Below, piece by piece: positions 19,855 to 28,317 of a DNA stretch of 32,738 nt. Position 1 is the first letter of the stretch. Every line of letters starts with the position of its first letter. Origin of the DNA: an uncultured Thermotogae bacterium (GTDB lineage: Bacteria; Bipolaricaulota; Bipolaricaulia; M55B111); contig CAZRDU010000004.1 of NCBI GenBank assembly GCA_964599005.1, forward strand, positions 1 to 32,738, written 5' to 3'. A model generated the notes under the pieces. The model made no database searches. It saw only the letters and a program-made list of their open reading frames with translations, and had not been told where the DNA came from. Both the position numbers and the translations under genes were made by a program.

Positions 19855-21273
19855 ATGATAGAACAAAATTTTCTTACACGAGATTTGCTGTCCGAAGAAG
19901 AAATCAATTTAATCCATAAAACTTCGATGGAGATCTTTGAAGAGACTGGCGTAGAGGTCCACAATGAGGAAGCAAGAGAAGTCTTCTCGGAAAACGGAGC
20001 CCGGGTAGAAGGGGAAAAGGTCTTCCTCTCGGCCGACATAGTAGAAGAACACCTGGAGAAGGTACCTTCTTCTTTTACACTTCACGCGAGAAACCCCGAA
20101 AACAACGTAGAAGTCGGTGGTGACAGTGGAGTTCTGGCTCCCGGGTACGGTGCTCCATGGGTAACTGATATGGAAGGTAACAACAGGGATGCTACCTATG
20201 AAGATTACGAGAACTTTACCAAGCTCGCGTCAGCCAGCGATAACCTGGACGTTCTTGGAGGAGTGCTGGTAGAGCCGACTGATCTTGCCGACGAGGAAAG
20301 ACACGTCAGGATGATGTATGCTGGAGCAAAGTACTCTGATAAACCGCTAATGGGAAGCGCACTCGGGAAGAAAAAGGCCAGGGAAGCAATACAGATGGCA
20401 AGCATACTTATGGGGGAAGACGAAATTATCTGTGACCGTCCAGTTGTTATTACCCTGATAAACACGACGAGCCCGCTGGGTTACGACAACCGGATGCTCG
20501 AGGCATTGATGGAGCATGCACGGTTTAACCAACCGACTGTGATAGCTTCCCTTATCATGGCCGGGTCGACCGGTCCAATCACTGTAGCAGGAACTATTAC
20601 TCTGCAGAACGTGGAGGTACTGACAGGTGTCGTTTTATCGCAGATGGTAAACCCGGGAACTCCTGTCGTCTACGGTTCAGCCTCTACTATAGTGGACCTG
20701 AACACGGGAGATCTTGCCGTGGGTAGCCCCGAATACGCCAAATTTATCGGTGCTACGGCACAGCTGGCGCGCCATTACGACGTCCCTTGTCGGGGTGGAG
20801 GTTCGATAACTGATTCACTGCGCACGGACGGCCAGGCGGGCTACGAGTCCATGATGACTTTTGACGCATCTATGAGTCATGGTATGGACTTCGTCCTGCA
20901 TTCGGCAGGGTTGCTTAAAAACTACATGGCCATGTCGTACGAGAAGTTCGTTATGGACGACGAAATTCTCGACATGGTTAATAACTACCAGAAAGGACTC
21001 GAAGTAAACGAGGAAACCGTGGCAAAAAAGGCAATCCAGAACGTGGGGCACTCGGGCCACTATCTCAAGGAGCCTTCGACTATCCAGCACATGAAGGATT
21101 TCCGGAAGCCCGCACTGAGTAACCGAAAGGGTTTCGATTCCGACGAAGGACTAAAAACCACGATGGAACGGGCGCACGAACGCTGTGAGTCCATTCTGAA
21201 TGACTTTGAAGCACCACCACTTGATCCGGAGATCGACGAGAAATTGCAGGATTACATGGACAGGGTTACTTAA
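19855..21273 (+). CDS. mttB: Pyrrolysine-free MttB-superfamily quaternary-amine:corrinoid methyltransferase (MtgB-like)
   Basis: IHKTSMEIFEETGV, PSSFTLHARNPENN, GSTGPITVAG, GSPE, DGQAGYES, SYEKFVMDDE. Uninterrupted ORF with no internal TAG; AAGGAGG SD. Confidence 0.9.
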   Translation: MIEQNFLTRDLLSEEEINLIHKTSMEIFEETGVEVHNEEAREVFSENGARVEGEKVFLSADIVEEHLEKVPSSFTLHARNPENNVEVGGDSGVLAPGYGAPWVTDMEGNNRDATYEDYENFTKLASASDNLDVLGGVLVEPTDLADEERHVRMMYAGAKYSDKPLMGSALGKKKAREAIQMASILMGEDEIICDRPVVITLINTTSPLGYDNRMLEALMEHARFNQPTVIASLIMAGSTGPITVAGTITLQNVEVLTGVVLSQMVNPGTPVVYGSASTIVDLNTGDLAVGSPEYAKFIGATAQLARHYDVPCRGGGSITDSLRTDGQAGYESMMTFDASMSHGMDFVLHSAGLLKNYMAMSYEKFVMDDEILDMVNNYQKGLEVNEETVAKKAIQNVGHSGHYLKEPSTIQHMKDFRKPALSNRKGFDSDEGLKTTMERAHERCESILNDFEAPPLDPEIDEKLQDYMDRVT

Positions 21274-21439
21274 GATCATTTCCTTCGGCACCAAAATAGA
21301 ATAAATTTGTCTCTGTATTCACCTTGGGCTAAGCTAGGTGTCTGGTGGTGGGGTGAATCATAGCTCGCACTTCGATTAACCAGATCGAATACTTTTCTCA
21401 TTATTTAAACCGATACTTTAGAAAACTAAGGAGGTTTTC

Positions 21440-22969
21440 ATGTCCAATTCGGTTAATAATGAAAGATCTTACGATCCCTATATTTTTTGGATTTCGGCAA
21501 TATTAATCTCGCTATTTGTTCTCTGGTCGATCGTATTTCCGACGAACATGGAGAATGTAATCAACAAGGTATTTAGCTGGATGACCCAATCGTGGGCCTG
21601 GCTGTGGCTACTGACTGCTTTCCTGCTGGTTGGGGGAGCGTTTATCATGCTGGTTACCGATTACGGAAAAATGAAACTGGGAAAACCGGATGATGAACCG
21701 GAAATATCAAAGTTCTCCTGGTTCTCCATGTTATTTGGAGCGGCAATTGCCGCGGGAATAGTATTCTGGGGTCCTGCAGAGCCGGCCTACCATTTCATGA
21801 GCCCTCCTCCTTTCTTTGGTGGTGAGGCGATGACGGATGCGGCTGCCAATCACGCAATGACCACTTCGTTCTTTCACTGGGGTTTAAGTGCCTGGGCAAT
21901 TTACGTCATGCTGACGATTCCCCTTGCTCACGCCTGCTATACAAAAGACCTTCCCTTTAGACTCTCCAGTGCATTTTACTACGTAATTGGCGATCGCGTC
22001 AGGGGATTCTGGGGCAAAGTCATTGACGTAATTGGCGTGTTCGCCACGGTCGGCGGGTTGTCCACTACTACGGGCCTGATAGCGCTCCAGTTCTCTTCGG
22101 GACTTAAATACCACTACGGGATGGAGCTGCCGCAATACGGGATATATCTGATAATAGGTGCCCTGACCGCGATATTTACGATAGCTGTCTATACCGGGGT
22201 CCAGAAAGGGATAAAGCTTATCGGGGATATAAATATGTGGCTCTTTATAGCGGTATTCTTCTTTGTGTTTGTCTTTGGCCCGACGCTTTTCTTCCTGAAC
22301 TTAACCACTAATTCCATCGGGCAATATATTTTGAACTTTATTCCGATGAGTCTATTTACCGGGGGCGCGGCGGCGAGCGCAGGGGCAATGGACTGGCTCG
22401 GCAGCTGGACCATATTCTACTGGGCCTGGTGGATTGCCTGGGCTCCGTTTGTGGCACTATTTATCGCCCGAATTTCCAAAGGTAGAACGATTCGAGAGAC
22501 AATTGCCGCTACTCTGTTGCTTCCTACCCTTGCAGACTTCCTCTGGTACGGGGTCGTAGGTGGAGCAGGAATAAGTTTTGATATCACGGGAGTCGTACAG
22601 GAGCACGGGGTGGAAAGTGCAGTATTTGCTACTATCCAGCACCTCCCGCTCACCCCGGTGCTGGCGATAGCTATTCTATTCTTGATTGCCGGCTTCTTCC
22701 TGACGAGTGCAAACGGGGCCGCGATGGCGCTGTGTATGTTCGTTTCCGGAAAAGAGGAACCGAGCAAACACATACGAGTTTTCTGGGGGGTGGCTCTGGG
22801 TGTGATCGGAGCTATTCTGGCAGGGACTGGTAGCCTCGAAGTTATCCAGACCGCTTCGATTGCGACGGCCTTTCCCCTTATGTTCTTGCTCATTGCATTG
22901 CTTTTCGGCACTTTCAGAGGACTTGGACGGTACAGGGAAAATGAGCTGGAGGGTGAAGTTGGTAACTAG
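21440..22969 (+). CDS. BCCT-family betaine/carnitine/choline transporter
   Basis: LGKPDDEPE...SWFSMLF, FFHWGLSAWAIY, WTIFYWAWWIAWAPFVALFIARISKGRTIRE; about 12 TM segments. Confidence 0.95.
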   Translation: MSNSVNNERSYDPYIFWISAILISLFVLWSIVFPTNMENVINKVFSWMTQSWAWLWLLTAFLLVGGAFIMLVTDYGKMKLGKPDDEPEISKFSWFSMLFGAAIAAGIVFWGPAEPAYHFMSPPPFFGGEAMTDAAANHAMTTSFFHWGLSAWAIYVMLTIPLAHACYTKDLPFRLSSAFYYVIGDRVRGFWGKVIDVIGVFATVGGLSTTTGLIALQFSSGLKYHYGMELPQYGIYLIIGALTAIFTIAVYTGVQKGIKLIGDINMWLFIAVFFFVFVFGPTLFFLNLTTNSIGQYILNFIPMSLFTGGAAASAGAMDWLGSWTIFYWAWWIAWAPFVALFIARISKGRTIRETIAATLLLPTLADFLWYGVVGGAGISFDITGVVQEHGVESAVFATIQHLPLTPVLAIAILFLIAGFFLTSANGAAMALCMFVSGKEEPSKHIRVFWGVALGVIGAILAGTGSLEVIQTASIATAFPLMFLLIALLFGTFRGLGRYRENELEGEVGN

Positions 22970-23004
22970 ATAACCTAATAATTTTTCCGATAATGAACAA
23001 ACTG

Positions 23005-23037
23005 AAGCCCCCAATCGAATTCGGTTGGGGGCTTTTT
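23005..23037 (+). terminator. Intrinsic terminator after the BCCT gene
   Basis: AAGCCCCCAATCG / CGGTTGGGGGCTT stem running into a T5 tract. Confidence 0.88.
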
Positions 23038-23215
23038 CATTGGCAACGACGAAATAAACCTGACGTTATTGGTGAAGTGTAACCCGTCCCATTGGTAAAA
23101 AAAGCGTTTCCAACCTTAGGGACTTCTCGTCAAAAGCACCACACCTCTGTACAGAGATAATTGACTGCGGGCGGTTTAAGGGCATAAGAGTAGAAAATTA
23201 TATTGAATAAACCTC

Positions 23216-23244
23216 TTGACAGGCCGAAGAGCTTCAGTTAACAT
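23216..23244 (+). promoter_or_regulatory. Sigma70-type promoter of the thr leader/operon
   Basis: TTGACA (23216-21), 17 bp, TAACAT (23239-44), with AT-rich upstream sequence. Confidence 0.7.
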
Positions 23245-23282
23245 AATTTAAATCAAATTTCATTAGAGGAAGAGGAATGTCC

Positions 23283-23414
23283 ATGAAAACAGAAAAAAAC
23301 TTCAAAATTCAAAATTCGGGCAGGCAAATGTTATCTTTTCTGCCCAGTACCTCTTCCGTATCCAGCCACACGACGTCCAGCATGATGACGGGAGGGAACC
23401 TCTCCCTCCAATAG
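23283..23414 (+). CDS. Putative attenuation leader peptide (43 aa, Ser/Thr/Met-rich) upstream of thrC
   Basis: MKTEKNFKIQNSGRQMLSFLPSTSSVSSHTTSSMMTGGNLSLQ*. Tandem AGAGGA-AGAGGA SD at 23265-76; alternative in-frame ATG at 23277. Codons 22-36 contain 7 Ser, 4 Thr and 2 Met out of 15. Below the ORF-track length cutoff. Confidence 0.65.
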   Translation: MKTEKNFKIQNSGRQMLSFLPSTSSVSSHTTSSMMTGGNLSLQ

Positions 23415-23533
23415 CTCTACTCTAACCAGATTTTCTCTCAATTATTTTCGTTAATTTCATTTCGTTATTAGTTATCGTTTCTTCAGGATTTTAATTTCAA
23501 AAAACGGGATTCCTGATATTTAGGAGGTTTTTC

Positions 23534-24589
23534 ATGGAGTGGAAAGGTGTTCTCGATCGGTACTTCGAATATTTACCAATTGAAAGTCGAGAGAATATCG
23601 TCAGTTTGACCGAAGGAAATACGCCATTAATAAGGGCGAAAAACATCGAAGAAAAGCTGGAAGACGATCTGGAGGTATATCTAAAGTACGAGGGTGCGAA
23701 CCCTACTGCGTCCTTCAAGGACCGGGGTATGACAGTGGCCGTATCAAAAGCGGTAGAAAAAGGTGAAAAGGCAGTAATTTGTGCCTCGACAGGCAATACG
23801 TCGGCCTCAGCTGCAGCGTTTGCGGCCAGGTCTGGCCTGGAAGCTATTGTCGTTATTCCGGAAGGAAAGATTGCTTTTGGGAAGCTTTCTCAGGCCATGA
23901 TGCATGGCGCAACGGTTGTCCAGATTGAGGGGAACTTTGACGAGGCGCTGGAGCTAGTTCTGGAGATTTCCGAAAACTATCCAGTAACCCTGGTAAATTC
24001 GCTCAACCCTAACAGGATCGAGGGGCAAAAAACCGCATCTTTTGAAATATCTGACTTTCTCGGTCGGGCCCCGGATTATCACCTCCTGCCCGTTGGCAAT
24101 GCAGGCAATATTACCGCTTACTGGAAGGGGTACAAAGAATACTACGAGTCGGGACAGACCGAGGTGTTGCCAAAGATGACGGGCTTTCAGGCAGCGGGGG
24201 CTTCGCCGATAGTCGACGGAAGGAAAGTTGAGAACCCGGAAACCGTGGCGACTGCCATTCGGATAGGGAACCCTGCCAGCTGGGAAAAAGCTGAGAACGC
24301 CCGGGACGAGTCCGGTGGAATGATAGGAAAGGCGAGCGACGAAGAGCTCATAGAGGCATATCAAGCCCTGGCAAGTAGAGAGGGTGTTTTCTGTGAACCG
24401 GCTTCCGCAGCTTCCATAGCGGGATTGTTCCAGATGGACGGAACGGGTTATTTCGACCAGGGTAGTGTCCTGACATGTACATTAACCGGACACGGGCTAA
24501 AGGATCCAGATATAGCTATTGAATCCAGCGAGGAACCGGTAACTGTCAAAAACGACGTCGATGAAGTACTGGAGGTCTCCGGTTTATGA
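23534..24589 (+). CDS. thrC: Threonine synthase
   Basis: EGNTPL, KYEGANPTASFKDRG (PLP lysine), CASTGNTSAS, PVGNAGN, EPASAAS, TGHGLKD. AGGAGG SD. Confidence 0.97.
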   Translation: MEWKGVLDRYFEYLPIESRENIVSLTEGNTPLIRAKNIEEKLEDDLEVYLKYEGANPTASFKDRGMTVAVSKAVEKGEKAVICASTGNTSASAAAFAARSGLEAIVVIPEGKIAFGKLSQAMMHGATVVQIEGNFDEALELVLEISENYPVTLVNSLNPNRIEGQKTASFEISDFLGRAPDYHLLPVGNAGNITAYWKGYKEYYESGQTEVLPKMTGFQAAGASPIVDGRKVENPETVATAIRIGNPASWEKAENARDESGGMIGKASDEELIEAYQALASREGVFCEPASAASIAGLFQMDGTGYFDQGSVLTCTLTGHGLKDPDIAIESSEEPVTVKNDVDEVLEVSGL

Positions 24590-25773
24590 AGTACGTAATC
24601 GTTCAGGGTGACGGGATGGCCGATCGCCCTCAAAAAGAACTTTCCGGAAGAACCCCGCTGGAGGCGGCTAATACCCCGAATATGGACACGATTGCTTCTG
24701 CCGGAGCCCTAGGAACTGTTAATACAATCCCTGGCGATTTGCCACCGGGAAGTTCGGTGGGGAACATGAGTTTAATGGGTCTAAATCCGAAAAAATATTA
24801 TACCGGTCGCGCCCCCCTGGAGGCTAAGGGCCTCGGAGTAGATGTGGGTGAAAAAGATATCGCTTTTCGGTGCAATCTCGTGCGATTTGGCGAGAACGGA
24901 AGCGGAAGGATCATGAAAGACTATAGCGGCGGGCATCCATCACAGGAGAGCGCCCGTCGTTATATCCAATCTGTAAACGAAGAGCTTGGTGGGGAAAAAT
25001 TTAATTTCTATCCCGGGGTAAGTTATCGAAATTTGCTGATCTGGCAGGACGGGAGAGAGAAAATAAACCACGAAGAGATTTCGCTTACCCCTCCACACGA
25101 TATTACCGGAGAGTCCCTGGAACGGTATCTCCCACGGGGACCGGGAAGTAAAGTTCTGCTGGAACTCCAGAATCAGGCAACTGATTTACTGAGGGGAAGT
25201 GAGGGGCCGTTAAACGGTGTTTGGTTCTGGGGGGCCGGGGTTAAGCCGGAGATCCCGACATTCCGGAGTCGTTACGGACTTCAGGGCCACGTTATCAGCG
25301 CTGTGGACCTTATAAATGGACTCGGTGCCTACTCTGGTCTTTCACCGGTAGATGTGGAAGGTGCCACCGGGTTAATTGATACAAACTACGAGGGAAAGGT
25401 AGATGCTGTCCAGGATAACCTTGAAGAGGATTCTTTGGTTTATCTTCATATAGAGGCTCCGGACGAAGCAGCTCATGCGGGTGATCTCGAGCAAAAAATC
25501 GAGGCTATTGAGAGAATTGACCGAAGGATACTTGCCCCACTTCTTGAGTTTCTTCGGGAAGAAAATGGAGTTCGGCTTCTGCTGGTAACCGACCATATTA
25601 CGGGGGTAGAGTCGAAAACGCACGAGCGCGGTCCGGTCCCTTTTGCGGTATTCGAAAATCCCGACTCAAGAGTCGAGCATCAGAGTATTTTTTCTGAAAA
25701 ATCTGCAGCCGGAACTGGAAAGGATTTTCCCGGCGGTCAAGAACTTATTGATTTCTTTCTAACCGAGGGGTGA
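24586..25773 (+). CDS. apgM: ApgM-family metalloenzyme (cofactor-independent phosphoglycerate mutase fold), proposed alternative homoserine kinase
   Basis: GDGMAD, TPLEAANTPNMD, PGS (phospho-Ser), YTGRAPLEA, HIEAPDEAAH, TDH. Sits between thrC and hom, the context of the TIGR02535 proposed homoserine kinase family. Confidence 0.85.
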   Translation: MKYVIVQGDGMADRPQKELSGRTPLEAANTPNMDTIASAGALGTVNTIPGDLPPGSSVGNMSLMGLNPKKYYTGRAPLEAKGLGVDVGEKDIAFRCNLVRFGENGSGRIMKDYSGGHPSQESARRYIQSVNEELGGEKFNFYPGVSYRNLLIWQDGREKINHEEISLTPPHDITGESLERYLPRGPGSKVLLELQNQATDLLRGSEGPLNGVWFWGAGVKPEIPTFRSRYGLQGHVISAVDLINGLGAYSGLSPVDVEGATGLIDTNYEGKVDAVQDNLEEDSLVYLHIEAPDEAAHAGDLEQKIEAIERIDRRILAPLLEFLREENGVRLLLVTDHITGVESKTHERGPVPFAVFENPDSRVEHQSIFSEKSAAGTGKDFPGGQELIDFFLTEG

Positions 25774-25774
25774 A

Positions 25775-26875
25775 GTGATGATAAACTGTGTAGAAATTAC
25801 GGGAACACCACTGGTCCAGATAGGACTGGGTACTGTCGGACTGGAACTAATTAAGCTGGTAGAGCGCTGGAACGAATCGGCAGAGGAAGGTGCCGGGTTG
25901 AAGTACGTTGGTCTGGCTGACAGCAGCGGGTTTAGCCTTAATGAAGACGGCTTCAACACCAGCGAACTTGAGAAAGTCCGGGATGATAAGCTAGCCGGAA
26001 AAAAACTCTCTCAAATAAGCAAAAACCGCGTTAAAGAGGGCTCAGAAGCACTCGAATCGGTATTTGAAGGTTTCGATCGTGGCGTGTTAATTGACGTCAC
26101 GGACGCCAGTTCTTTGAGCAAGTTCTACCGCAAAGGGTTCGAACACGATTGGTCGGTCGTAGTCGCGAATAAGATCCCTTTGACTGAAATCACTCCGGAA
26201 GAGTTTAAGGAGTTTAAGGAAGATGGGATAGGCTATGAAGCAACAGTGGGTGCCGGTTTGCCCGTCATTTCTACGTTAAAACAGCTTCAGCGTCAGGGCG
26301 ACAGGGTTAAAGAAATTGGTGCTATTTTGAGCGGTTCACTCAGTTATATTCTCTCGGCAATAGAAGACGGCCAGGTCCTGTCGGAAGCTGTACTGGGTGC
26401 CAAGGAGAAAGGGTTTACCGAACCAAATCCCGTGGAGGATCTGGTTGGAAACGACGTAGTCAGGAAAGGTCTGATACTGGCTCGGAGTCTAGGGATGAAC
26501 CTGTCAGTAGCGGATGTGGATGTGAACCCGCTGGTTCCGCTACCGGAAAAGGACTTCTCCGATCAGGAACTTAAGCAAAAATTGGCCGAATTCGACGAGG
26601 ACTTTCGCGCAAAGGCTAAATCCGCCGAAAAAGCCGGAAATCGTCTGAGGTATCTGGCGCGGGTAAATAAAGATGGGGTAAAAGTAGGGCTGGAGGAACT
26701 GGATTCCGAATCGCCGCTTGCCGGAGGTTCAGGTACTTCGAACGTAATTCAGTTCAAGTCAGATAATTACGTCGAACCGCCGCTGGTAATTCAGGGACCG
26801 GGCGCCGGTCCGGCGGTGACTGCCGGGGGCGTTTTGTCAGAAATTAACGCTTTTTCTGGATGTAGACTGCAATAG
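25775..26875 (+). CDS. hom: Homoserine dehydrogenase (no ACT domain)
   Basis: IGLGTVG, VVANK, YEATVGAGLPVI, GFTEPNPVEDLVGND, GPGAGPAVTAGGV. Exact start uncertain (GTG 25775 or ATG 25778). Confidence 0.93.
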   Translation: MMINCVEITGTPLVQIGLGTVGLELIKLVERWNESAEEGAGLKYVGLADSSGFSLNEDGFNTSELEKVRDDKLAGKKLSQISKNRVKEGSEALESVFEGFDRGVLIDVTDASSLSKFYRKGFEHDWSVVVANKIPLTEITPEEFKEFKEDGIGYEATVGAGLPVISTLKQLQRQGDRVKEIGAILSGSLSYILSAIEDGQVLSEAVLGAKEKGFTEPNPVEDLVGNDVVRKGLILARSLGMNLSVADVDVNPLVPLPEKDFSDQELKQKLAEFDEDFRAKAKSAEKAGNRLRYLARVNKDGVKVGLEELDSESPLAGGSGTSNVIQFKSDNYVEPPLVIQGPGAGPAVTAGGVLSEINAFSGCRLQ

Positions 26876-27183
26876 AGGAGTTGTGATGAGGTCATTATTT
26901 GAGCGAGCTTTTTCTTTCCCGTTCGATAAAACCGCAGGCGATTTCCCCGGCGTGGAAATCGCTGCTTCGATCTCAGCCTCGCTCCCCAGCGCACAAATGA
27001 GTTGCGGCGCTCGGGAGAAGGTAGAAAGCCTTGAGTACGCGCAGTAATTTACTGGAACGGAGGCCATTGATCGGGTCCAAGCAACTGTTCTCATTTGAGC
27101 GCTGGTTCCATGCCCGCTCGGCTTCCGATGTGATTTTCCTGAACGGGAAGAAAAATCTCGCTTTCGCTAGAACCTCAGCTCTT
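26876..27183. other. Unclassified ~300-nt highly base-paired intergenic element (structured ncRNA/cis-regulator or MITE-like)
   Basis: 26902-26924 pairs with 27141-27162 (21 bp); 26934-26965 forms a 12-bp hairpin; 26986-27005 pairs with 27081-27105; 26887-92 pairs with 27172-77. Confidence 0.6.
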
Positions 27184-27306
27184 AAAAGAGTGAAGTATAA
27201 AAGCGGTTTGGAATAATTTTGTTAATTTGGATCACTAAATTTTTAGAAAACAGTTTAGAATTATGTTTCAAAAATATTAATGCCAAAGAAATTTTCGGGA
27301 GGAAAC

Positions 27307-28317
27307 ATGAGTGATTACTGTGTCGGAATCATCGGTGCACTTGGAGCTGTCGGTGAGCAGATGAGGGATATCCTCGCGGATAGTTCGATAGATATCGGGG
27401 AAGTAAAGATGTTTGAACGACCGGAACTCGAAGGAGAGACCGCAATGTTTGACGGGGTAGAGATACCCTGTGAGGTCGCCACTGAGGACAACCTGGCGGA
27501 GTGCGACCTTGCCACTATGTCAGCCGGTTCGGCTGCCTCGGAAAAGCTTGCTCCTCTTGCAGCTGACGCGGGATGCGTTATAGTCGACAACTCAAGTCAG
27601 TGGCGGATGGATCCTCAGGTGCCGCTGGTCGTCCCCGAGGTTAATCCGGAAGATCTCGACTGGCACGAGGGAATCGTGGCAAATCCGAACTGTTCTACGA
27701 TCCAGATGGTAATGGCTTTGAAACCAATTCACGATGAGTACGTTATACAAAGGGTCGTGGTCTCTACATATCAGGCCGTCTCTGGCTCGGGTGTCGATGC
27801 GATAGAAGAGCTTAAGGAGCAGACGGAAAGTATAGTAAAGGGGGAAGAACCGGAAGCCAGTGTCTATCCTCATCGGATAGCCTTTAACGCTTTGCCGCAT
27901 ATAGACGTCTTTCAGGAGAACGATTATACGAAAGAAGAGATGAAGATGGTAAACGAAACAGAGAAAATTATCAGTGAAGATATCGCGGTTAGTCCCACCG
28001 CGGTACGGTTACCTATCTACCGTTCTCACGCCGAGTCAATCAACATCGAAACGGAAAAATCACTTGATCCAGAGGGCGTCAAAAGACTGATGGAAGAGGC
28101 TCCTGGAGTGAGGTTACAGGATGATCCGAAGAACGAAGAATACCCTCTACCAGTTCAGGCAGAAGGAAAAGACGAGGTCTTCGTTGGCAGAATAAGGCGT
28201 GACCCTACAGTGGATAACGGGATGAACTTCTGGGTGGTAGCTGACAACTTAAGGAAGGGCGCGGCACTGAATACTGTACAGATAGCTGAAAGTCTCGTTG
28301 AGAGAGATCTAGTCTAA
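27307..28317 (+). CDS. asd: Aspartate-semialdehyde dehydrogenase
   Basis: GALGAVG, DNSSQWRMDPQVPLVVPEVN, ANPNCST, STYQAVSGSG, DNLRKGAALN. ATG 27307 follows GGAGG. Confidence 0.97.
   Translation: MSDYCVGIIGALGAVGEQMRDILADSSIDIGEVKMFERPELEGETAMFDGVEIPCEVATEDNLAECDLATMSAGSAASEKLAPLAADAGCVIVDNSSQWRMDPQVPLVVPEVNPEDLDWHEGIVANPNCSTIQMVMALKPIHDEYVIQRVVVSTYQAVSGSGVDAIEELKEQTESIVKGEEPEASVYPHRIAFNALPHIDVFQENDYTKEEMKMVNETEKIISEDIAVSPTAVRLPIYRSHAESINIETEKSLDPEGVKRLMEEAPGVRLQDDPKNEEYPLPVQAEGKDEVFVGRIRRDPTVDNGMNFWVVADNLRKGAALNTVQIAESLVERDLV

Follow-up and report, generated by a model that had tools for sequence, protein, structure and literature searches.

Results

A candidate leader peptide gene precedes thrC

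The window considered here is the whole 32,738-nt stretch of contig CAZRDU010000004.1 (GenBank assembly GCA_964599005.1), from an uncultured bacterium of the Bipolaricaulota. Directly upstream of thrC, on the forward strand, it carries a promoter-like sequence and a 43-codon upstream open reading frame (uORF) that, judged by comparison with related genomes, is a conserved, lineage-specific candidate leader peptide of the threonine (thr) operon. A sequence-only reading of this region had listed the promoter, a Shine-Dalgarno (SD) sequence, the 43-codon frame and a 15-nt near-tandem unit within it, and all four are present. Its description of the uORF as unannotated needs qualifying, since homologous small ORFs are carried as 'hypothetical protein' in three NCBI metagenome-assembled genome records. 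The features of the leader are as follows.

23216..23244, forward strand: sigma-70-type promoter, TTGACA (23216-21), a 17-nt spacer and TAACAT (23239-44), from a consensus scan (10/12 positions)
23268..23275, forward strand: box A, GGAAGAGG, the uORF SD, 7 nt before the ATG; 5' arm of helix A:B
23283..23414, forward strand: leader uORF of 43 codons, MKTEKNFKIQNSGRQMLSFLPSTSSVSSHTTSSMMTGGNLSLQ, with ATG at 23283 and TAG at 23412-14
23350..23357, forward strand: box B, CCTCTTCC (codons T23-S24-S25), anti-SD-like; 3' arm of helix A:B
23361..23390, forward strand: two 15-nt (5-codon) units, each closing with candidate control codons, from the codon alignment
23390..23409, forward strand: hairpin C:D, GGGAGGG (23390-96) with CCCTCC (23404-09), starting at the last base of the final Thr codon
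23415..23520, forward strand: G-poor, pyrimidine-rich spacer with a semi-conserved motif CTCTAACC at 23420-27, from the composition of 17 spacers
23522..23527, forward strand: box E, the thrC SD AGGAGG, 6 nt before the thrC ATG at 23534

The uORF SD lies within the purine run AGAGGAAGAGGAA. Codons 22-36 of the uORF read STSSVSSHTTSSMMT, in which 13 of 15 residues are Ser, Thr or Met. The two 15-nt units, TCCAGCCACACGACG (23361-75) and TCCAGCATGATGACG (23376-90), are identical at 11/15 bases; the first ends in ACG ACG (T30 T31, 23370-75) and the second in ATG ATG ACG (M34 M35 T36, 23382-90). From the end of the uORF stop (23414) to the thrC ATG there are 119 nt.

By itself the match to the promoter consensus is weak, because two promoter-like sites were found in the 900 nt scanned vs 1.3 expected from shuffles. 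Both the -10 and the -35 hexamers are kept among the orthologues, and transcription would start near 23250-52. Directly 3' of the -10 hexamer we observed a GTAAATC motif (TTTAAATC in the window; 23245-23253), an A+T-rich discriminator at or near the predicted transcription start that is kept in most leaders.

The leader is restricted to one family and its reading frame is maintained

We collected 17 distinct leaders, all directly upstream of thrC and one of them on a metagenome contig (L129). A uORF with an SD and an ATG was present in 17/17 of these loci, which belong to one uncultured, salt-loving family of the Bipolaricaulota (Acetothermia). The leader DNA was detected in 12 of the 14 other genomes of the genus and in one of three genomes of the sister genus; none of 22 genomes from the class's other families gave a match. 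Two genomes, G012 and G006, have two leader-thrC loci each, and these bins may mix strains.

Scans with ThrC across the genome collection and metagenomes yielded L129 as the sole new close locus; the remaining matches had ThrC proteins at most 68% identical and came from other phyla. There were 154 such loci, of which 10 with less than 200 nt upstream were dropped and 144 were scanned. Not one of the 144 had a uORF with at least four Thr in seven residues, and the three that passed a looser Thr+Met filter held nothing similar to this leader. The 14 ThrC loci read from other Bipolaricaulota families had different neighbours and no such leader. An nhmmer search of the window's own genome found the leader to be single-copy, and a crude leader-peptide scan of its other operons returned 29 candidates, none of them convincing. 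One weak family match in G014 (C147) was considered as a second copy and rejected as a chance match, as it falls inside a membrane-protein gene on the opposite strand. A peptide search with the single uORF sequence gave no match; four further variants of the uORF peptide were found in the protein database.

The uORF frame is open in 17/17 loci, with stops in the +1 frame in 17/17 and in the +2 frame in 16/17, and when the bases of each locus were shuffled the frame stayed open in ~15% of trials. Five different distances separate the ATG from the last Thr codon (78, 96, 99, 105 and 108 nt), all multiples of 3. These comparisons indicate that the uORF frame is maintained by selection. Among strain variants, which were obtained from four DNA runs, a near-identical strain has seven substitutions inside the uORF at 23309-23343 and zero at 23344-23414. 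Among RNA runs, none was found that contains this stretch. Because the N-terminal two thirds of the peptide diverge freely, even among near-identical strains, and the frame in which the tail after Gly-Gly is read varies among loci, the peptide is not conserved as a whole; only a core of ~16 codons is. The comparison of regions upstream of thrC in related genomes that the sequence-only reading had called for has recovered a conserved uORF at all 17 loci of the family, with its Thr and Met codons kept and its Ser codons not kept as a class.

Two conserved RNA helices overlap the uORF

The RNAalifold consensus of the leaders consists of helix A:B and hairpin C:D. Box B, also written CCUCUUCC, is the exact complement of the uORF SD and pairs with it, thereby joining the start region of the uORF to its body; box A is near-invariant across the 16 aligned leaders. 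In four loci the arms of hairpin C:D are the variants GGGGC/GCCCC and GGGG/CCCC. In helix A:B, 96% of the alignment cells are paired and two pairs have changes on both sides, and in C:D 98.8% are paired. For both helices together, 97.1% of the cells pair, vs 66-78% after shifting the partners against each other by 1-3 columns. Partition-function folds predict A:B in 13/17 leaders and C:D in 16/17. These are the only conserved helices; no conserved alternative helix was found, and a possible B:C pairing of 6 bp with two G-U pairs was read from the sequence. An inner hairpin in the N-terminal part (23318-45) was discarded as not conserved, being broken in a close strain.

Considered as a chain, the leader has three purine boxes, A (the uORF SD), C (the 5' arm of the hairpin) and E (the thrC SD), and their pyrimidine partners, namely B inside the uORF, D (the 3' arm of the hairpin) and the CU tracts of the G-poor spacer. 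No Rfam family matched at its gathering score in the whole window, and neither Thr_leader (RF00506) nor T-box (RF00230) was among the 15 Rfam matches at E up to 10 for 23000-23600. This agrees with the earlier view that the leader differs from both enterobacterial thrL and a T-box. A terminator scan of 22800-23700 returned no terminator-like site; the spacers of the orthologues were read and folded, not scanned with that tool. In the window, hairpin C:D is followed by AAUAGCUCUAC, which is not a U tract.

The conservation of boxes A-D at the nucleotide level, third codon positions included, and the occurrence of AUGACGG twice, 15 nt apart, in several loci would both be expected if the element acted as RNA alone or through a bound protein, with the boxes and the repeated (A/U)GACGG forming a structure or a regulator site, and with translation being incidental or yielding a small functional protein. 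However, in 17/17 loci the reading frame, start codon and distance from the SD are all preserved despite changes in length, each by a multiple of 3; no Rfam family matches; and the element is single-copy in its genome and, among the matches examined, found only upstream of thrC. A functional small protein is further at odds with an N-terminal two thirds and a C-terminal tail that are not conserved. We regard an explanation of this type as very unlikely.

Threonine and methionine codons are retained and interchange

Column counts were made on the 14 loci with standard spacing (G018, G011 and G010 were excluded), with the last Thr codon as position 0. The consensus of the core is [T/S/F]-S-S-V-S-I-x-[T/M]-[T/M]-[S/A]-[S/T]-[S/H]-M-T-G-G. 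Thr is kept in 17/17 loci and Met in 16/17. Position 0 is ACG in 14/14 aligned loci, with the hairpin arm beginning at the G of this codon. Position -1 is Met in 12 loci and Ser and Thr in one each, and the M-T-G-G that ends the core is near-invariant. At position -6 we found Thr in 12 loci and Met in 2, and at position -5 Thr in 8, Met in 4, and Lys and Asn in one each, so that Thr and Met interchange at both; the peptide variants from the database add more Thr-to-Met and Thr-to-Ser swaps among close relatives.

For composition, the core was taken as the ~11 codons after box B and pooled over the 17 loci (198 residues); box B was set too early in three loci, which gave longer cores there. Thr makes up 55/198 of these residues (28%), vs 5.1% in the genome, and Met 23/198 (11.6%), vs 2.0%, with at least two Thr in the core of every one of the 17 loci. 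The leader of the sister genus reads TSSTTTTTTGG, with six consecutive Thr codons. The exchange of Thr and Met at the same two positions fits a sensor of both amino acids, and the pattern of retained codons suggests that Thr, and probably Met too, is sensed. The part of the sequence-only reading that concerned Thr and Met, within its proposed sensor of Ser, Thr and Met, is supported by codons that are kept and interchange; its inclusion of Ser as a sensed residue is not, as set out below.

Serine richness is best explained by RNA pairing and base composition

That reading had the ribosome sense Ser codons alongside those for Thr and Met. Ser is indeed enriched in the core (47/198, or 24%, vs 6.8% in the genome), and at position -9 it is kept in 10/14 loci by way of four different codons. 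By contrast, the two invariant Ser codons (TCT in 14/14 loci and TCC/TCT in 14/14) sit in box B, complementary to the uORF SD; because these codons are frozen and form part of an anti-SD-like box, they point to constraint at the nucleotide level. Elsewhere Ser is readily lost: positions -4, -3 and -2 become Ala, Thr, His or Gly in one clade, and 4/17 leaders have no Ser after box B, nor does the sister genus have any there. The N-terminal part of the peptide is likewise Ser-rich (45/307), which argues for composition rather than sensing, and Ser is not a product of this operon.

From box B onward into the spacer the sequence is rich in C and poor in G, a composition that favours codons for Ser, Thr, Pro and Leu. 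From the sequences, the richness in Ser is best explained as a by-product of the pyrimidine box and of this C-rich, G-poor composition rather than as Ser sensing, and a triple sensor appears highly improbable. The label 'serine-dominated' is also not borne out, in a functional sense, for a leader in which Ser is frozen at the nucleotide level in box B, replaced elsewhere and missing from 4/17 cores. More generally, the amino-acid bias of a leader can arise from RNA pairing and base composition instead of sensing.

The spacer is G-poor and the thrC SD is predicted to be buried

Pooled, the 17 spacers contain 11.6% G, 19.7% C and 42% T, a skew matched by just 1.9% of 375 upstream regions of the window's genome. 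Every one of the 17 loci has a 78-nt window in which C exceeds G by 12 to 21, and an excess of 16 is reached by only 2% of genome windows. One of the two G012 loci (L016; G012:C57, also G012b) has a spacer of 233 nt, vs 68-120 nt, with a GC-rich insert and 22% G, unlike the G-poor other 16. The post-stop motif CTCTAACC was considered as a boxA and rejected, as it does not match the boxA-like GGTCTTTGACAGG of the rRNA leader in this genus. The latter sequence was observed upstream of the 16S rRNA gene at L216 (G004:C55), from the same genus, where the rRNA promoter region is immediately preceded by a tRNA gene. The 3' end of 16S rRNA in G007 reads GGATCACCTCCTTT.

The predicted probability that the thrC SD is unpaired had a median of 0.06 in the 17 orthologues vs 0.38 in 191 other genes of the genome led by GGAGG (Mann-Whitney p = 5e-8). 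The orthologues are not independent, but their spacers cannot be aligned, so that what is conserved is the burial of the thrC SD and not any one sequence. In the sister genus the run of Thr codons itself pairs with the thrC SD (probability 0.99). When boxes A and C were masked, the cost of opening E went up by at least 1 kcal/mol in 9/17 loci; when box B was masked, it went down by at least 1 kcal/mol in 6/17.

The spacer also bears on a reading in which the same stalling sensor of Thr and Met acts primarily through Rho-dependent premature termination. Here the sequence from box B to the end of the spacer, rich in C and poor in G, would be a Rho loading site, which a stalled ribosome would shorten or split, or at which it would delay Rho until thrC is translated; with helix A:B limiting the uORF to one pioneering ribosome, the site would be bare when Thr is plentiful. 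Rho is encoded in the window's own genome (PF07497, 108 bits), the 78-nt windows with C above G occur in all 17 leaders (a matter of composition only), few upstream regions of the genome are as skewed as the spacers, no intrinsic terminator was found, and the sequestered uORF SD is compatible with just one co-transcriptional round. In a published study (PMC1262725), Cys leaders that lack a terminator and have poly-pyrimidine spacers have been interpreted likewise. However, in 11/17 loci the window with the strongest skew begins at the 3' arm of the hairpin or slightly ahead of it, out of reach of a ribosome stalled on the Thr and Met codons, so a simple occlusion of the Rho site fails. In addition, the composition is T-rich rather than strongly C-rich, the G012b spacer is 233 nt long with 22% G, and the post-stop motif is not the boxA of the genus. 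Rho as the primary output is possible, and we consider it unlikely.

The operon and its surroundings

The genes downstream of the leader were named by Pfam and NCBIfam.

23534..24589, forward strand: thrC (TIGR00260, 310 bits)
24586..25773, forward strand: apgM-type proposed homoserine kinase (TIGR02535, 446.3 bits, exactly its cut-off)
25775..26875, forward strand: hom, by homoserine dehydrogenase models
27280..28317, forward strand: asd (NF011456, 452.6 bits)

For the apgM-type metalloenzyme gene between thrC and hom, a phosphoglycerate mutase model scores 451.7 bits, and its position in the operon favours the role of homoserine kinase. The 404-nt gap between hom and asd (26876-27279) has short ORFs only and may hold a separate promoter or leader for asd. 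Upstream, at 19855-22969, we observed an MttB-family methyltransferase (PF06253, 516 bits) and a BCCT betaine/carnitine/choline transporter (PF02028, 523 bits), a pairing that suggests use of quaternary amines, e.g. glycine betaine, in a hypersaline organism. A canonical hairpin-plus-U terminator stands at the end of the BCCT gene.

A tRNA-Thr(CGU) gene is present. The family has the enzymes required to convert homoserine to Met: PF01053 exceeds its cut-off in 16/19 genomes of the family, and PF02574 likewise in 16/19. The window's genome (G000), which is 71% complete, has only PF02574 of these two, and no MetA (PF04204), no MetE (PF01717) and no Cys_Met_Meta_PP over cut-off was found in it.

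Discussion

A proposed mechanism for the leader

We favour the reading that the uORF is a leader without a terminator that senses hunger for Thr, and probably also for Met, and that its output would pass through occlusion of the thrC ribosome-binding site (RBS) and/or Rho. We give this reading a probability of roughly 45%. The leader would report the decoding speed of the Thr codons, and probably of the Met codons beside them, and would set the expression of thrC, the proposed homoserine kinase and hom. At rest, helix A:B would close the start of the uORF, C:D would be formed and E would be buried in the pyrimidines of the spacer. If charged tRNA-Thr (or tRNA-Met) were short, a ribosome loaded co-transcriptionally would stall on the (T/M)T units between B and C and would keep first B, then C, from their partners. 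The purine box so freed would compete for the spacer pyrimidines, the thrC SD would open, and translation of thrC would shield the transcript from Rho on the spacer with its excess of C over G. With ample Thr, the ribosome would reach the stop just past the hairpin and leave, A:B and C:D would re-form and thrC expression would be low. An intrinsic terminator would take no part.

Several observations weigh against this reading. Modelling of the output step gave inconsistent results. The thrC SD has no conserved pairing partner, its partners varying by locus. Masking box B raised the cost of opening E in 2/17 loci and changed it by less than 1 kcal/mol in 9/17. A ribosome footprint placed over box B raised the predicted accessibility of the thrC SD by at least 0.15 in just four loci, with smaller rises in four more, while the sister-genus locus responded at its Thr run instead. 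There is little covariation in the helices: both sides have changed in two pairs (four cells), and most pairs show no variation at all. Leaders of genus 1 have only 2-4 Thr codons, and these are scattered. The sequestration of the uORF SD is better suited to a single decision during transcription than to steady-state sampling by translation. A stall at the most conserved Thr, which adjoins the hairpin, would mask C and free the anti-SD-like D, the wrong direction for this model. Finally, positions -10 to -8 retain Val, Ser and Ile despite synonymous codon changes, for which hunger sensing offers no explanation.

The last two points leave room for arrest by the nascent peptide, because the most conserved Thr abuts the hairpin and Val-Ser-Ile is kept through synonymous changes. 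In an arrest peptide of the TnaC/SpeFL type, SSVSI..(T/M)T...MTGG would stall the ribosome at the hairpin at high levels of a metabolite, e.g. free threonine; C would be masked by the stall and D released, and D would close the thrC SD or expose a Rho site, with the operon repressed as a result. Only under this reading does a stall next to the hairpin have the right sign. The codons used, GTA/GTT/GTC for Val (-10), TCC/TCG/TCT/TCA for Ser (-9) and ATT/ATC for Ile (-8), point to constraint at the level of the amino acid, and the near-invariance of M-T-G-G is in keeping with it. Against arrest, the tail after Gly-Gly is in differing frames and only ~16 residues could matter, G018 has a plain run of Thr in place of the motif, and our searches gave no homologue of known arrest peptides and no match outside the clade. 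We think that this type of arrest has little chance of being the explanation.

Comparison with known leaders

Hunger sensing without a terminator, the reading we prefer, invites comparison first with enterobacterial thrL (RF00506). Both are short uORFs directly upstream of threonine-biosynthesis genes, both are enriched in Thr codons and in codons for a second, metabolically linked amino acid, and in both conserved RNA pairings overlap the uORF. Unlike thrL, the present leader matches no Rfam family and has no terminator hairpin with a U tract that we could find; its second amino acid is Met rather than Ile; in genus 1 it has a small number of dispersed control codons; the uORF extends across the hairpin rather than ending ahead of it; and its SD is paired with the body of the uORF, with a 119-nt G-poor spacer before thrC.

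Leaders without terminators have been described in actinobacteria. As far as the available parts of these reports go, the mycobacterial poly-Cys leader Ms5788A is a translational attenuator (bioRxiv 10.1101/834739), and the LEU element and terminator-less Cys leaders have been reported from actinobacteria (PMC1262725). On the same partial basis, our candidate resembles Ms5788A and the LEU element in being a leader peptide without a terminator, with the downstream SD sequestered (here by prediction) and a stalled ribosome proposed to free it, and the sister-genus run of Thr codons that pairs with the thrC SD is a further likeness (10.1101/834739, PMC1262725). In contrast to what those sources describe, the control codons here do not pair with the thrC SD in 16/17 loci, the SD would be sequestered by variable tracts of the spacer, the leader is not leaderless, and an SD:anti-SD helix and a hairpin are conserved in addition.

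At tnaC and mgtL, a stall in a uORF reshapes the RBS of the next gene, translation of that gene starts, and the transcript is protected from Rho. The same chain is described, in the available part of the report, for toiL-topAI of E. coli (PMC12121999). The chain of events proposed here would be the same as at these three. These three systems sense antibiotics, free Trp, or Pro/Mg, and control genes that are not biosynthetic, whereas codon content and gene context here point to the supply of Thr and Met; any action of Rho on the present leader is inferred.

Implications

Most of what is known about leader-peptide attenuation comes from Proteobacteria, Firmicutes and Actinobacteria. The leader described here is a candidate amino-acid attenuator in the Bipolaricaulota, a phylum without cultured members, and our literature search found nothing on amino-acid attenuators in that phylum. 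It adds to the small set of terminator-less leaders, in which the coupling of stall to output is still being worked out.

We also considered whether the leader represents a system of a new kind, that is, either an undescribed dual sensor of Thr and Met, made of two (Thr/Met)-Thr units between an anti-SD box and a hairpin that would act without any terminator by handing pairing partners down a chain of three SD-like and three anti-SD-like boxes, or else arrest of SSVSI..TT..MTGG by free threonine. This seems to us very unlikely. If the arrest version were true, it would be the first metabolite-sensing arrest peptide on a biosynthetic operon, and the dual-sensor version, if true, would be a Thr/Met sensor of a kind not described. 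For the organisms of this family, the interchange of Thr and Met codons suggests that the homoserine branch may be under joint control by both of its end products.

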